Positions 1,944-45,948 of a stretch of DNA of 64,000 nucleotides are shown here, piece by piece. The notes beneath the pieces were generated by a model. The model had not been told where the DNA came from. It worked only from the letters and a program-made list of their open reading frames with translations, and ran no database searches. Numbering within the stretch: the first letter of the stretch is position 1; the number at the start of each line of letters is the position of its first letter. Source of the DNA: Escherichia phage BEU50; sequence record OM632671.1; one strand, written 5' to 3'. Position numbers and translations under genes: made by a program.

Positions 1944-3926
1944 TTAGGCACCTACAGCACCAATTAGTTCGTCGAAATCGGCACCCGTTGCTGTTGCTAC
2001 AAAGTTCAACGTAATATAATTTATCGATCTCGCAGGTTGTAAGTAGAAAGTAGCTACAAATTCATTACGGTCGATAACTGCTGGGGTGTTATTGGTAGTA
2101 TCACAAACAACTTTAAAGTTATATACACCACCGAGAGCTTTAATACCCTGTAGATATTGAGAAGTCTCTGTACGGAAAGAAGAACGGGTAAATGCGTTGT
2201 TCAATTCAAACAGGCGATATTTAGATGCTGAACCAATGTTCGTTTTAACCATATTGAACAAACGACGAACGTTAATACGGTCAAATGGCGAAGGAACGGA
2301 AGTGGCAGTTTTATCACCGTACAGAACATACCCATCACCACCGGTACCAGTAACAGGGTTAATAGCTTCCTGGTACAAACGATCACGCTGCGCTTGGCGA
2401 GTTTCAATTGCAAGCTTAATAACGTTAAGAATTTGTCCACGGTTATAACCGGCAGGAGACATCCAAGGCTGAGAAATATTGTCTGTGCGAGCACAAAGAC
2501 CAGCAATATCAGCAGCTAATGGAACCCAACGATTCACATCATTATATTTGTCATATTGATATTTATAGTTACCGTCAATAGCAGCATAAGTAGAACTTAC
2601 ATTAAAGTTATTATCAGTGTAAGTTCCTGACGCAGTACGCCAATCAACCAGATTATCAACTGCACGATTAACAGGAATACCGACTATAGTTGCACGTGGT
2701 GGTGAGCAAAGAACCAAACAATCTTGGCGAGAATCACCAATTGCTACAACATGTTTCTGAACTGTAGAAGCAACTTCTAAAGATTCACCTGCACAAGAAC
2801 CAGCAATAAACAACTGCGCATTAACAGATTCACGGTCAGCAAACAAATCCCAAGCTTCCATTAAATCACCAGCGTCAACAGTTTCATTAGATGATAAGCC
2901 ACCACCCAGTTTGATTACGCCAGAGAAACCTTTTGGCCAACCTTGTGCAGTAGCGAAAATATAATTGCTTGCGCCTTTAGCAAAGAAATCATCAATAAAG
3001 ATATTACTACCATAAATATCGCGTTCACCACGTTTAGTAGAAAGAACTACGCTCTGAACTACAGCATCGTTACGACGAACGATAATTGCATATTGGTCAT
3101 CAGTTTGTGGGCCATACCCAAAGATTGCTTTAGCAGTAGATGCACGAGTACCACCATCAGGATAAATTTTTAACTGGGCTGAAGCACCTTTGTCATAGTC
3201 TGCTTTAGATACGATTTCAATTTCGAGCTGGTCGCCAAGTTCACCAGGATAAAGAGCAACTACGCCTGGGACACCATATTTTTTAATAGATTCTTGGAAA
3301 GTTAGAGAAGTAATAGCTTCTTCAGAAGTTTCAACTTCAGTTAACAGAATACCCGAATCGGTTACGATAGAACCAATTGTAATAACGCCAGAGAGACCAG
3401 AAGAAGAACTGGCAACTTCGGCGGTCCAGTTAGAACCCAATGCCGGATATTCATTAATTTCTTTTGCACGAGCAATAATTTTACCGGTTGGGATATAAAT
3501 GTTACGAATTTTACCATCGACATCAACTGAAGTGACATAACCATCTGCTTCAACAGTTTCGGTCAAATACTTAACGATAATTTTATCACCAACTGCATAG
3601 TTACTACCAGCAGCAGAGATTGTGAATTCAATATTGCCTGCTACAGGAGATGAGTTCTTAGCAGCATCACGATCAACTGCGCGTACAACACGAAGGTCAT
3701 TACCATATTGAAGGAAGTTCATAGCAGACATGAAATAATCTGCTGTATCCGTATTAGGAGCACCAAACATATCAACCAATGCAACTTCATCAGTGATTTG
3801 TTTAATCTGGAATGCAGGTCCCCATTGGAATTTTCCAGCCAGGGCAGCAGTACCAGTGGAGTTATTAACTACAGTACTCTGTACGGTAGTTTCTTTGAGC
3901 TCAACGCCCGGAGAGAGAAGTGCCAT
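1944..3926 (-). CDS. 18: tail sheath protein gp18
   Basis: 660 aa; N-terminus MALLSPGVELKETTVQSTVVNNSTGTAALAGKFQWGPAFQ near-identical to recalled T4 gp18. Confidence 0.97.
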   Translation of the reverse strand: MALLSPGVELKETTVQSTVVNNSTGTAALAGKFQWGPAFQIKQITDEVALVDMFGAPNTDTADYFMSAMNFLQYGNDLRVVRAVDRDAAKNSSPVAGNIEFTISAAGSNYAVGDKIIVKYLTETVEADGYVTSVDVDGKIRNIYIPTGKIIARAKEINEYPALGSNWTAEVASSSSGLSGVITIGSIVTDSGILLTEVETSEEAITSLTFQESIKKYGVPGVVALYPGELGDQLEIEIVSKADYDKGASAQLKIYPDGGTRASTAKAIFGYGPQTDDQYAIIVRRNDAVVQSVVLSTKRGERDIYGSNIFIDDFFAKGASNYIFATAQGWPKGFSGVIKLGGGLSSNETVDAGDLMEAWDLFADRESVNAQLFIAGSCAGESLEVASTVQKHVVAIGDSRQDCLVLCSPPRATIVGIPVNRAVDNLVDWRTASGTYTDNNFNVSSTYAAIDGNYKYQYDKYNDVNRWVPLAADIAGLCARTDNISQPWMSPAGYNRGQILNVIKLAIETRQAQRDRLYQEAINPVTGTGGDGYVLYGDKTATSVPSPFDRINVRRLFNMVKTNIGSASKYRLFELNNAFTRSSFRTETSQYLQGIKALGGVYNFKVVCDTTNNTPAVIDRNEFVATFYLQPARSINYITLNFVATATGADFDELIGAVGA

Positions 3927-38973: not shown

Positions 38974-39432
38974 ATGACTATCAATTCGGAAGTTTTTATC
39001 CGCCGTAATAAACTCCGTCGAATCTTTGAAACGGAGTTCCGCAAAATAAATGCCAGTATAAAAGACGCTGCAAAGTCTCTTGGACTACCAGGCTTTCATA
39101 TCAAGTATTCTCAACATCTCTTAGATCGTGCTATCCAGAGAGAAATAGATGAGAATTACGTTTTTGAATTATTTCGTAAAGTAAAAAATCATGTTAAAGA
39201 AGTTGCAGAATTTTTATCAATGCCGGCACGTCCAGATGTTGATGAAGATTTTGTCGAAGGTGTCGAATATCGCCCGGGCCGTTTAGAAATAACTGATGGA
39301 AATCTTTGGTTGGGACTTACAGTTTGTCGCGAAAATCCGGCATTCAAAATGAAGACTCTTCAATGCAGAATGGCTATTATTAACAGTAAACGACTACCAG
39401 GAAAAGCTTCTAAAGCAGTGATTAAAATCTAG
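38974..39432 (+). CDS. regB: endoribonuclease RegB
   Basis: MTINSEVFIRRNKLRR...HIKYSQHLLDRAIQREIDENYVFELF...QCRMAIINSKRLPGKASKAVIK matches recalled T4 RegB. Confidence 0.88.
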   Translation: MTINSEVFIRRNKLRRIFETEFRKINASIKDAAKSLGLPGFHIKYSQHLLDRAIQREIDENYVFELFRKVKNHVKEVAEFLSMPARPDVDEDFVEGVEYRPGRLEITDGNLWLGLTVCRENPAFKMKTLQCRMAIINSKRLPGKASKAVIKI

Positions 39433-39440
39433 AGGTAAAC

Positions 39441-39983
39441 ATGAGAAAAGCACTACTCGCTGGTCTATTTGCTCTTTCATTATCAGCACATAGCTCCGAG
39501 CATACTTTTAGTAATGTCCAACTCGATAACTTGAATTATGCTTATCAGTTTGGGGAACAGTTTTCTAAGGACGGAAAATTTAAAACGCATGAAAATATGC
39601 ATAAGAAAGGACTTGGATACATAATGGCCGCAATACTATGGCAGGAATCATCTGCCGGTATTAATCTTAAAGATAAGAAAGGTCACCATGCGTATGGAAT
39701 GTTCCAAAATTATCTACCAACAATGAGGGCAAGAATTAACCAGCTTGGTTATAATATGACTGATGCCCAAATTAAGAAAATGCTATCTAAGCGGTCTAAT
39801 TCAACCAGATGGGCTTATATCGAATTTTCTTATTGGTTAAATATACATAACGGGGATATAAGAAAAGCTATATCCTCATATAATGCGGGATGGAAGACAA
39901 GCGCTGGAAGTAAATATGCTTCTGAAGTCCTAGAAAAGGCTAATTACCTTAAATCAAATAAACTACTGGAAATAAAAGAATGA
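39441..39983 (+). CDS. predicted periplasmic lytic-transglycosylase-like protein
   Basis: N-terminal signal peptide MRKALLAGLFALSLSAHS; SLT-like motifs WQESSAG, GMFQ, SYNAGW. Confidence 0.6.
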   Translation: MRKALLAGLFALSLSAHSSEHTFSNVQLDNLNYAYQFGEQFSKDGKFKTHENMHKKGLGYIMAAILWQESSAGINLKDKKGHHAYGMFQNYLPTMRARINQLGYNMTDAQIKKMLSKRSNSTRWAYIEFSYWLNIHNGDIRKAISSYNAGWKTSAGSKYASEVLEKANYLKSNKLLEIKE

Positions 39984-40327
39984 CCAAAATGTTGGCTTTA
40001 ATAGTTGGCTTGGTTTCATTTAACGCTCTTGCTAATACTACATATACTGATGTAACGGAGTATACAAACAGAACGGCGTCTGATTATTGTGGTAAAAGTC
40101 AAGAGTGTAAAGTAGATTTTTCACAAAAATTGTTATATGCGTATAAAGACGGAGAAAAAGATGGGGCGTCTAGTAGGTTCAAGGCGTCTACCTTAATTAA
40201 AAGATACTATAAAAAATGGCAAATATTAGAATGCTCTGTGGCGGAACCTAAAGATAAGGCAGCATGCAATTCTATGGTGGACCGTCTAGTTGACTCTTAT
40301 ACTAGAGGACTTGCAGCAAGTGATTAA
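39980..40327 (+). CDS. predicted secreted protein (signal peptide, 4 Cys)
   Basis: MTKMLALIVGLVSFNALA signal-like N-terminus. Confidence 0.55.
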   Translation: MTKMLALIVGLVSFNALANTTYTDVTEYTNRTASDYCGKSQECKVDFSQKLLYAYKDGEKDGASSRFKASTLIKRYYKKWQILECSVAEPKDKAACNSMVDRLVDSYTRGLAASD

Positions 40328-40784
40328 AAACTATATCAAGGGCGATATTGTCGCCCTGTTTTCTAAAGGTAATAATATTGCTCATGGGTGTAATTGTTTT
40401 CATACAATGGGCGCCGGTGTAGCAGGCCAATTAGCAAAGGCTTATCCAAAAATTCTGGAAGCCGATAAACTTCAAACCGAATTCGGAGACAAGTCTAAAC
40501 TCGGGACTTATTCGGTTTATGAAAAATATTTTAAGACCCATAAAGCTTATTGCTTTAATCTTTATACACAGTTTGAGCCGGGACCTAATTTTGAGTACTC
40601 TGCTTTAATGAATTGTATAATAGAATTAAATGAATTCGGAAAGAATAAGATAATAAAGCCTGTAATTTATATGCCTAGAATTGGTGCAGGTATTGGTGGT
40701 GGAAACTGGGATATCATCGAAGAGATTTTAGATACGTATTCCACTAAACTAGAAATTGTGATTGTTGATTGGGAACCTAAATGA
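40320..40784 (+). CDS. macrodomain protein, TARG1/DarG-like (predicted ADP-ribose processing)
   Basis: Motifs YIKGDIVALFSKGNNIAHGCNCFHTMGAGVAGQL and MPRIGAGIGGGNWDIIEEI align with recalled human TARG1/OARD1; start uncertain (GTG 40320 after SD gagga, or TTG 40290). Confidence 0.7.
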   Translation: MIKNYIKGDIVALFSKGNNIAHGCNCFHTMGAGVAGQLAKAYPKILEADKLQTEFGDKSKLGTYSVYEKYFKTHKAYCFNLYTQFEPGPNFEYSALMNCIIELNEFGKNKIIKPVIYMPRIGAGIGGGNWDIIEEILDTYSTKLEIVIVDWEPK

Positions 40785-40963
40785 AATTAACTAAAGAAGA
40801 GAAAGCTAAATTGTTCGAACTTATCCATGACCTATTGGATGAGCAAGCAGCCACCAATGCGTATGATGAATATGCTCCTTTAACAGATGAAGAATATCAA
40901 GCATTGATGGAATCATTTGACAGGAAAGAACAAGAACTCATTGACTACGTGAATTCACTATAA
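40781..40963 (+). CDS. hypothetical acidic protein
   Basis: 60 aa ORF. Confidence 0.5.
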   Translation: MKLTKEEKAKLFELIHDLLDEQAATNAYDEYAPLTDEEYQALMESFDRKEQELIDYVNSL

Positions 40964-41806: not shown

Positions 41807-42109
41807 ATGGCCTTAAGAGCGATAGCTGTCATGGCGATGCTGGGGTTTTTTGCAGCAACAACTCCTATCGTTGGTACTGCATATGTTGACCCATATTTTG
41901 ATAACTTTATGGAATCAGGGATTAAAAACGTATATACTTTGTTTGAAATTCAAAATGTCGAGAATTCTGAAAAATTCTATAAGTATATGGCAAAGCATTA
42001 CAAAAATAGCCCCTGTGATGATGCATTTGAATGTCACGAACAAGGCATAAAAACTGCCAGACAATTTGCCGAGTTCATGAAAATAAAATTAGAGCCTACA
42101 TCTATCTAA
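41807..42109 (+). CDS. rI: lysis inhibition regulator RI (antiholin)
   Basis: Signal-anchor plus VDPYFDNFMESGIKNVYTLFE...SPCDDAFEC... matches recalled T4 RI. Confidence 0.85.
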   Translation: MALRAIAVMAMLGFFAATTPIVGTAYVDPYFDNFMESGIKNVYTLFEIQNVENSEKFYKYMAKHYKNSPCDDAFECHEQGIKTARQFAEFMKIKLEPTSI

Positions 42110-45666: not shown

Positions 45667-45948
45667 ATGAAAAAATTAGTAATTGGTTTATTCGCAGTAA
45701 TGATGGCATTCTCTGTTGGTGCTACCACAGGTGCTGCTGGCGGTAGTGCAGGAGCTGGTGGTAACCAGTCTTCTGGGCCTTCCAATGGTTCGGTAAATGC
45801 ATCACATTCTCAGGGTATTGAGAACATTAAATCAAGCTATATTAATAGCACGGCAGGTCAAGCAACTGAAGCATGGTCAAAGGGCCGAGTAGTTACTCGC
45901 TCCGTATTCTGTGATATGCCTAATTATGTTGCTAAGTGCGATAAGTAA
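45667..45948 (+). CDS. small secreted Gly/Ser-rich protein with C-terminal Cys-x8-Cys loop
   Basis: Signal peptide MKKLVIGLFAVMMAFSVGA; AGGSAGAGGNQSSGPSNGS; C-terminal CDMPNYVAKC. Confidence 0.55.
   Translation: MKKLVIGLFAVMMAFSVGATTGAAGGSAGAGGNQSSGPSNGSVNASHSQGIENIKSSYINSTAGQATEAWSKGRVVTRSVFCDMPNYVAKCDK

Follow-up and report, generated by a model that had tools for sequence, protein, structure and literature searches.

Vs.1 and Vs of an RB69-like phage: a conserved gene pair with predicted periplasmic products

The sequence comparisons, structure models and published phenotypes brought together here concern two adjacent genes in a 64,000-nucleotide stretch of Escherichia phage BEU50 (OM632671.1; the whole stretch is called the window below), and lead us to suggest that they constitute a conserved two-gene module, the products of which both act in the periplasm with the smaller protein, Vs, as a partner of the larger, Vs.1. 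We put the probability of this reading as a whole at about 55%. The two open reading frames (ORFs), 39441-39983 (+, 180 aa) and 39980-40327 (+, 115 aa), are both confirmed by the ORF list and are, judged by sequence similarity, the RB69-type orthologues of T4 vs.1 and vs, long-named genes and not anonymous ones. We propose that Vs.1 would be made as a 180-aa precursor, exported by the Sec pathway and cut after Ser18 to yield a basic, soluble enzyme of ~18.7 kDa with a GH23 (Slt70/goose-lysozyme) fold and a single catalytic glutamate, Glu69, which, from early in infection, most likely acts as a lytic transglycosylase on the N-acetylmuramic acid-N-acetylglucosamine (MurNAc-GlcNAc) bond of the host's murein. 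Vs, its translation coupled to that of vs.1, would be exported in like manner, cut after Ala18 and folded in the oxidising periplasm into an 11-kDa four-helix bundle with two disulfides, where it may act on or with an activity that cleaves murein, its most plausible role being to regulate Vs.1 or serve as its partner. Such a periplasmic role would stand instead of, or besides, modification of the cytoplasmic valyl-tRNA synthetase (ValRS).

Relatives of the window are RB69-like Mosigvirus phages (98.5-99.2% DNA identity in the surrounding DNA), so that by its sequence the window is that of an RB69-like T4-type phage, and the gene order regB-vs.1-vs-tk.4-tk.2-tk-rI.1-rI is common to the window, RB69 and T4. 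In PHROGs the first ORF falls into phrog_600 (unknown function; E 2.6e-66) and the second into phrog_1256, 'valyl tRNA synthetase modifier' (E 5e-35). Vs.1 is 82.6% identical to T4 Vs.1 (Y06E_BPT4, phrog_600) and differs from it in nothing of substance, sharing its length, its position between regB and vs, its signal peptide and its motifs; the window copy is the RB69-type allele. Vs, 66.7% identical to T4 Vs or tau factor (E 2e-44; phrog_1256, PF26829), likewise has 115 aa and lies between vs.1 and tk.4.

Export signals of Vs.1 and Vs

Both precursors begin with a positively charged n-region, followed by a hydrophobic h-region of 13-15 residues and a c-region with small residues at -3 and -1 (AXA-type sites). 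That of Vs.1 reads MRKALLAGLFALSLSAHS followed by SEHT, laid out as MRK, ALLAGLFALSLSA and AHS ahead of SE, and that of Vs reads MTKMLALIVGLVSFNALA followed by NTTY, laid out as MTK, MLALIVGLVSF and NALA ahead of NT. The signal-peptide calls were made with our own simple n/h/c heuristic plus evolutionary conservation, RI (41807-42109), which is experimentally exported, serving as the positive control. Of the 142 ORFs in the window that start with ATG and reach 60 aa or more, the heuristic flags only 6, namely vs.1, vs, RI, the secreted-looking ORF at 45667-45948 and a pair of antisense ORFs, probably spurious; since positives are this rare, two adjacent ones are not a chance pattern. In the AlphaFold2 (AF2) models the predicted local distance difference test (pLDDT) of the signal segments is <50 for residues 1-15 of Vs and ~62 for residues 1-20 of Vs.1, and exceeds 90 in the bodies of the proteins.

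Conservation is a stronger argument for the signal peptides than the heuristic alone. Among 70 IMG/VR loci recovered with a Vs.1 profile, 54 of the 56 distinct Vs proteins and 52 of the 62 distinct Vs.1 proteins pass the heuristic, and most of the failures are upstream ORF starts or fragments. The signal segments vary freely in sequence; their charge, hydrophobicity and cleavage-site pattern are kept. Four CC31-like homologues of Vs carry a lipobox, LSGC (MKKLFVLLVVFALSGC...), instead of the AXA site, and are thus predicted to be lipoproteins. We predict with high confidence that both Vs.1 and Vs are exported, and the same sequence features suggest that cleavage at the sites given would follow.

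The lipobox (ALSGC) ORFs lie on CC31-like contigs (L050-L052 and L075) at about 3049-3375. Two further Vs genes, ZZ1p0140 of Acinetobacter phage ZZ1 (L009:2450-2779; annotated only as hypothetical, yet a Vs homologue) and gp095 of Morganella phage MP1 (L014:2510-2809), have GenBank starts placed too far downstream, whereby the signal peptide is lost; it is regained from an in-frame ATG by the vs.1 stop codon, overlapping it in ZZ1 and 2 nt after it in MP1.

SAR domains are uncleaved, weakly hydrophobic, Gly/Ala-rich membrane segments of about 18-20 residues or more. One such domain, as in T4 RI, was considered for each of the two N-termini and rejected on the grounds of their short h-regions (only 13-15 residues) and their AXA-type cleavage sites; RI in the window has a 23-residue uncharged run, unlike the h-regions of Vs.1 and Vs.

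The sequence-only reading of this stretch had described two adjacent signal-peptide proteins, and this description stands, both ORFs being where it placed them and the n/h/c architecture of both being conserved in homologues. Its second protein, presented as a small secreted Cys-containing protein, does have a signal peptide and four cysteines in its mature part; it is not an anonymous protein, being the orthologue of T4 Vs.

Folds and relatives of the two proteins

Vs.1 in its predicted mature form (162 aa, 18.7 kDa, isoelectric point 9.6, zero Cys) very probably has the GH23 fold. Residues 61-154 match the Pfam soluble lytic transglycosylase (SLT) family (E 7.8e-4, 19.4 bits), and a precomputed PF01464 match exists for ~30 of 120 Vs.1 homologues among the matches listed. 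The motifs E69-S70, G86-M-F-Q89 and S146-Y-N-A-G-W151 are present, as the earlier reading had noted, and are conserved across 45 homologues (down to 39% identity), in which E69, S71, G86, Q89, N90, Y147, N148 and G150 are invariant. In the AF2 model, built from the alignment of these 45 homologues (pLDDT 90.1), E69 lies at the C-terminal end of helix 59-70. When this model was compared with the PDB by Foldseek, the top matches were all lysozyme-superfamily GH23 proteins: a Ralstonia GH23 chitinase (3w6e, E 9.8e-3), MltD (8rhf) and the Slt enzymes of Pseudomonas aeruginosa and E. coli (6fcq, 1sly, 1qte), with probabilities of 0.93-1.0, template-modelling (TM) scores of 0.47-0.53 and E-values of just 1e-2 to 0.7. 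The SLT-fold similarity on which the sequence-only reading had staked its first protein is thus borne out by the predicted fold. Weaker Foldseek matches were to the phi6 lysin and to the T7 gp16 core protein (probability about 0.85).

Regarding the chemistry, the Vs.1 family profile aligns over its full length to fish g-type lysozymes (e.g. 3mgw, 4g9s), at an E-value of only 0.4, in a register that places AILWQESSAG on GIISRESRAG, which holds the catalytic Glu, and SYNAG on AYNAG. No invariant or near-invariant Asp or Glu occurs between E69 and G86 in the 45 homologues, and the Vs.1 columns that face the extra Asp positions of the g-type lysozymes hold Lys, Asn or His. Since no conserved acid follows Glu69 at those positions, a single-acid lytic-transglycosylase mechanism appears preferable to hydrolysis. 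Searches of PDB sequences with the single proteins (Vs.1 and Vs) and with the family profiles gave nothing significant, the marginal full-length alignment of Vs.1 to g-type lysozymes being the only informative result, and the Vs profile returned noise only.

Among the known enzymes close to Vs.1 are the family-1 lytic transglycosylases (Slt70, MltD, MltE; PF01464, GH23), with which it shares a helical fold like that of lysozyme and three motifs, ES, G-[LM]-[MF]-Q and [AS]-Y-N-A-G, and from which it differs in being a single-domain soluble protein of ~160 aa that is phage-encoded, early and provided with an N-terminal extension of its own. This extension, FSNxQLDNLxYAYxFGEQ (residues 23-40), is conserved within the Vs.1 family and specific to it, as is an HHAYG motif. 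The goose-type lysozymes (GH23 hydrolases) are like Vs.1 in overall length and in having the catalytic Glu and AYNAG in register, and unlike it in the acids at the extra catalytic Asp positions, which Vs.1 does not conserve. VirB1, P19, IpgF and EtgA, specialised enzymes of secretion and conjugation systems, are Sec-exported single-domain SLT proteins of ~17-20 kDa, which open the murein locally and do not lyse the cell; compared with them by description only, Vs.1 differs in that no trans-envelope machine is encoded next to its gene. Relatives of Vs.1 occur in 2060 phage records, including Ackermannviridae and Felixounavirus. A marginal SLT similarity of T4 vs.1 and five relatives was published by Nolan et al. 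in 2006 (PMC1524935), and is therefore not new here.

The predicted mature Vs (97 aa, 11.0 kDa, four helices) has four cysteines, C37, C43, C85 and C96, and exactly four Cys follow residue 22 in 54 of the 56 distinct Vs homologues. In the AF2 model (pLDDT 84.5; helices 14-37, 41-64, 69-85 and 90-114), the pair C37/C43 borders the first turn and the pair C85/C96 the third, an arrangement which suggests two disulfides that would staple the hairpins and would need an oxidising compartment to form. M1, C37, C43, G58, C96, L103 and G110 do not vary across 15 divergent Vs sequences, and the remaining Cys keeps its position, though spread over two alignment columns. As an observation apart, two Vs genes, in vB_EcoM_005 (L008:2393-2650) and at L054:3191-3376, have lost two of the four Cys by internal deletion or truncation and are possibly natural loss-of-function alleles.

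The Vs family is narrow. A tblastn search matched it in 795 phage records, a search for cellular homologues returned phage proteins only (7 representatives in 1.84 billion proteins), and a family-profile search gave 17 matches, all labelled PF26829, a family that no paper we found mentions. Divergent members, 21-29% identical to the window Vs, were located by looking 3' of vs.1 and come from Krischvirus, Gualtarvirus, Jiaodavirus, Roskildevirus, Muldoonvirus, Jiangsuvirus, Pseudotevenvirus and the Acinetobacter Zedzedvirus; an hhalign comparison between divergent groups (probability 96%, E 2.5e-9) supports their homology. Pfam and NCBIfam scans found no family for Vs, Pfam scans of 10 members found none in common, and Foldseek of the Vs model found no structural relative outside its own family in PDB and BFVD (none with E<=0.001 in PDB). 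A relationship to DUF1311/LprI, which we take to be a family of four-Cys helical lysozyme inhibitors, was considered and rejected, since its representative 3gi7 appears only at Foldseek rank 28 (probability 0.04) and none of the 10 members has a matching Pfam family.

Linkage, phenotypes and competing explanations

The stop/start overlap of vs.1 and vs implies that their translation is coupled. In 64 of the 70 IMG/VR loci vs.1 is followed on the same strand by an ORF of the Vs family, the gap measuring -8 to +7 nt in 55; one locus has only a vs fragment, eight RB43-like contigs have vs 0.5-1.2 kb off, and 6 loci (Aeromonas-phage-like and jumbo contigs) have no vs downstream. The linkage spans phages of Escherichia, Klebsiella, Erwinia, Serratia, Morganella, Pseudomonas and Acinetobacter, and in the 'phages' collection the identity bands of the two proteins correspond one to one, with 154 Mosigvirus-level and 502 Tequatrovirus-level matches for both.

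Transposon data for T4 published in the HIDEN-SEQ preprint (10.1101/2025.11.20.689424, Data S8) find both vs and vs.1 to be non-essential. Considering the reads per site in LB, which are 26.6 for vs and 22.6 for vs.1 and 178.6, 289.6 and 652 for the neighbours regB, tk.4 and vs.3, respectively, insertions in the pair are ~10-fold scarcer than in their neighbours, and a mild fitness cost is common to vs and vs.1 and absent from the flanking genes. In M9-glucose the value for vs falls to 5.0 (log2 fold change -2.19, adjusted p 0), the strongest depletion of any T4 gene relative to LB, and a plaque defect was confirmed; that for vs.1 falls to 11.9 (log2 fold change -0.87, p 0.0055, adjusted p 0.155). 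The authors read the need for vs in minimal medium through ValRS and nutrient limitation. E. coli couples the synthesis and autolysis of its murein to RelA and the stringent response (reviewed in PMC8359209). Through this coupling, we speculate, the nutrient- and relA-dependent phenotypes of vs could arise at the envelope.

A number of observations weigh against a partnership of the two proteins in the periplasm. A mirror-tree analysis found no Vs.1-Vs co-evolution beyond the shared phylogeny (raw r 0.68, partial r 0.17 given RegB). No Vs is detectable beside the Vs.1 homologues of Ackermannviridae, Felixounavirus, some Aeromonas phages and jumbo phages, and Vs.1 thus does not strictly need Vs; moreover, synteny among T4-like phages is generally high, which makes adjacency alone weak evidence of partnership. 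Vs has almost no family-wide conserved surface residues, so that a fixed interface with the well-conserved Vs.1 is not favoured. The fitness cost that the two genes share may be due in part to polarity of vs.1 insertions on vs, and the Pfam SLT score of Vs.1 stays under the gathering cut-off (19.4 versus 21.3 bits). To these points must be added the work of Neidhardt, Marchin and colleagues (1966-1980), in which the vs product, 'tau', of ~10 kDa, reportedly co-purifies with the host ValRS and is said to stabilise a temperature-sensitive ValRS, vs mutants reportedly being without the modified enzyme and vs mutations reportedly changing plating on valS(ts) relA hosts.

This classical work implies that Vs acts in the cytoplasm and the sequence evidence implies that it is exported, and the export signals of Vs thus clash with its label of 'valyl-tRNA synthetase modifier'; the described activity, binding of ValRS in the cytoplasm, fits poorly with an architecture of signal peptide or lipobox and four Cys that is kept throughout the family. 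The predicted mass of T4 Vs, in which cleavage may fall after Ala18 or Ala20, is 11.0-11.2 kDa when mature and 13.1 kDa as precursor, and since the former is the nearer to the reported ~10-kDa factor, the purified factor may already have lost its signal peptide. N-terminally His-tagged T4 Vs was insoluble when made in the E. coli cytoplasm (PMC8076793), which fits a secretory disulfide protein. No paper on the localization of Vs, or on the discrepancy between export and ValRS binding, was found in a literature that mostly excluded subscription journals.

If the textbook role is correct, Vs is a cytoplasmic tau factor that binds the host ValRS, its N-terminus being unused for export or its export only partial (a dual location), the adjacency to vs.1 is plain synteny and Vs.1 is an independent periplasmic SLT-like enzyme. 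We consider this rather unlikely, in spite of the clear orthology of the window protein with T4 Vs, the classical biochemistry and genetics, cited in PMC8076793, that reportedly tie vs to ValRS, the depletion of vs in minimal medium that its authors linked to nutrient limitation (10.1101/2025.11.20.689424) and the missing specific co-evolution signal. The closeness of mature T4 Vs to tau in mass supports the assignment of the factor to this ORF, and implies removal of the signal peptide as well. What this role leaves unaccounted for is an n/h/c architecture retained by 54 of 56 Vs homologues despite 20-25% identity between groups, the existence of lipobox variants, an N-terminus that is disordered in the AF2 model and four invariant Cys at helix turns; such disulfides do not form in the cytoplasm. 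Further, the Vs versions of E. coli phages are only 21-29% identical and are without a conserved surface patch for one conserved host ValRS, and the cytoplasmic His-Vs was insoluble (PMC8076793).

Two explanations keep Vs in the periplasm and assign it, or Vs.1, another task. Vs may be a Spackle-like inhibitor of the murein hydrolases of superinfecting or competing phages, or of host autolysins, with Vs.1 remodelling murein, the outcome being superinfection exclusion or resistance to lysis from without. A small lysozyme inhibitor that is exported has a precedent in T4 Sp, and Spackle-gp5, Ivy, PliC/MliC, PliG, LprI and the effector-immunity pairs of type VI secretion systems provide a working analogy for Vs, which would likewise be small, exported and coupled to the gene of an adjacent periplasmic murein glycosidase. 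Both proteins are predicted to be periplasmic and are encoded in an early-gene region; Vs diverges about twice as fast as Vs.1 (mean p-distance 0.57 versus 0.29) and keeps only scaffold residues, as a binder in an arms race would; and the cost in fitness shows when phages compete at high titre in liquid, conditions under which superinfection is common. We nevertheless regard defence against competitors as distinctly improbable, given that Vs has neither sequence nor fold similarity to Sp, Ivy, PliC/MliC, PliG or LprI and no co-evolution signal with its neighbour, that the searchable literature yielded no exclusion phenotype of vs or vs.1, and that a plaque defect which depends on the medium (M9 versus LB) is not obviously predicted by exclusion. 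Very unlikely, in our judgement, is a role of Vs.1 as an accessory enzyme of lysis or cell growth that supplements endolysin E, or keeps murein expandable in lysis inhibition after host autolysins are shut off, Vs having an unrelated periplasmic role. The GH23 fold with its conserved catalytic Glu and the proximity of vs.1 to rI and rI.1 would agree with it, and Nolan et al. (PMC1524935) proposed 'some role in cell lysis'; yet gene e stays near-essential in T4 (2.5 reads per site; 10.1101/2025.11.20.689424), so that Vs.1 cannot replace the endolysin, an early Sec-exported enzyme would reach murein long before the programmed time of lysis, and the tight coupling to vs is left unexplained.

We therefore return to a module of two periplasmic proteins, and consider it somewhat more probable than not that Vs does its work in the periplasm and is functionally tied to the cleavage of murein. 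Envelope remodelling by the pair, which the sequence-only reading had raised together with superinfection exclusion, is compatible with the data; controlled remodelling of the wall, restraint of Vs.1 and defence against competitors' lysins are candidate purposes that a functional partnership of Vs.1 and Vs might serve. Only tentatively do we extend this to the proposal that Vs is exported to the periplasm, bonded by disulfides and in some phages made as a lipoprotein, and that it works with Vs.1 on the cell wall, its association with ValRS being secondary or the result of compartment mixing at breakage, and the nutrient and relA phenotypes arising through the coupling of murein to the stringent response and not through translation.

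Features of the locus, neighbouring genes and implications

The features of the locus are collected in Table 1. Sites resembling those of sigma-70 were no commoner around the locus than in shuffled sequence in a promoter scan. The hairpin just past vs lies in a region where some relatives have an annotated 'terminator' feature, and may be a partial terminator, an attenuator or an RNA-stability element that closes the vs.1-vs unit.

Table 1. Features of the vs.1-vs locus, in positions of the window
Feature	Position	Strand	Basis and remarks
GAGG Shine-Dalgarno sequence of vs.1	39432..39435	+	5 nt before ATG; overlaps the regB stop codon, 39430-39432; read from sequence
vs.1 coding sequence: 180-aa precursor of a GH23/SLT-like putative murein glycosidase	39441..39983	+	ORF, PHROGs, Pfam, T4 identity, AF2, Foldseek
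Predicted Sec signal peptide of Vs.1, residues 1-18, MRKALLAGLFALSLSAHS, cut after AHS	39441..39494	+	Heuristic, pLDDT, conservation
Glu69-Ser70 codons, predicted catalytic 'ES' motif	39645..39650	+	Conservation; g-type lysozyme alignment
GMFQ motif, residues 86-89, SLT motif II	39696..39707	+	G86 and Q89 invariant
SYNAGW motif, residues 146-151, SLT 'AYNAG' motif	39876..39893	+	Y147, N148 and G150 invariant; aligned to AYNAG of g-type lysozymes
ATGA overlap (4 nt): vs start 39980-39982, vs.1 stop 39981-39983	39980..39983	+	Sequence
vs coding sequence: 115-aa Vs precursor	39980..40327	+	ORF, PHROGs, T4 identity, AF2
Predicted Sec signal peptide of Vs, residues 1-18, MTKMLALIVGLVSFNALA, cut after ALA	39980..40033	+	Heuristic, pLDDT, conservation
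Cys37 (40088-40090) and Cys43 (40106-40108) codons, putative first disulfide	40088..40108	+	Flank the helix 1-helix 2 turn; conservation
Cys85 (40232-40234) and Cys96 (40265-40267) codons, putative second disulfide	40232..40267	+	Flank the helix 3-helix 4 turn; conservation
8-bp GC-rich hairpin followed by a T-run	40339..40357	+	Terminator-like scan; 12 nt past the vs stop, within the 5' end of tk.4

Several neighbouring genes deserve mention. In Klebsiella phage YP11 (L015:1719-2111), Erwinia phage IT22 (L016:2303-2719) and Acinetobacter phage ZZ1 (L009:2776-3207) vs is followed by the gene of a third signal-peptide protein, which gives these phages three consecutive proteins of exported type; the third proteins have 130-143 aa and are mutually homologous (blastp 1e-10 to 1e-26), the YP11 copy belongs to phrog_4957, and the gene is absent from the window and from T4. 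Downstream of vs, tk.4 (40320-40784, +), the start of which by RB69 homology is a GTG overlapping vs by 8 nt, encodes a macro-domain protein (Pfam Macro, E 1.4e-6) whose PHROGs family is labelled 'phosphatase'; its T4 orthologue has recently been named AdfM, anti-DarTG2 factor (10.1101/2025.11.20.689424). The tk.2 orthologue (40781-40963, +; 60 aa) matches DUF7438 (E 2.4e-16) and, far short of the cut-off (E 0.15), shows a very weak match to the Acb2/Tad1 hairpin domain, at most a lead to a possible nucleotide-sponge-like fold. Elsewhere in the early region the ORF at 45667-45948 (+; 93 aa), assigned to phrog_2243 (unknown function, E 4e-38), encodes a protein that looks exported, in which a strong signal peptide (MKKLVIGLFAVMMAFSVGA) is joined by a low-complexity stretch rich in Gly, Ala and Ser and by two Cys at the C-terminal end.

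Finally, vs is among the oldest named non-essential genes of T4, and the purpose of the 'modification' of ValRS has never been explained. Should the textbook role be right, the result presented here is an ordinary one, of two known genes, one of them with a known SLT-like domain. If, on the other hand, Vs is periplasmic and tied to early murein cleavage, the search for its function should shift from translation to the envelope, and the label 'valyl-tRNA synthetase modifier', which extends over hundreds of phage genomes (795 records match), would be misleading. The pair would then be a further conserved early envelope module of T4-like phages, beside Imm, Sp and RI.

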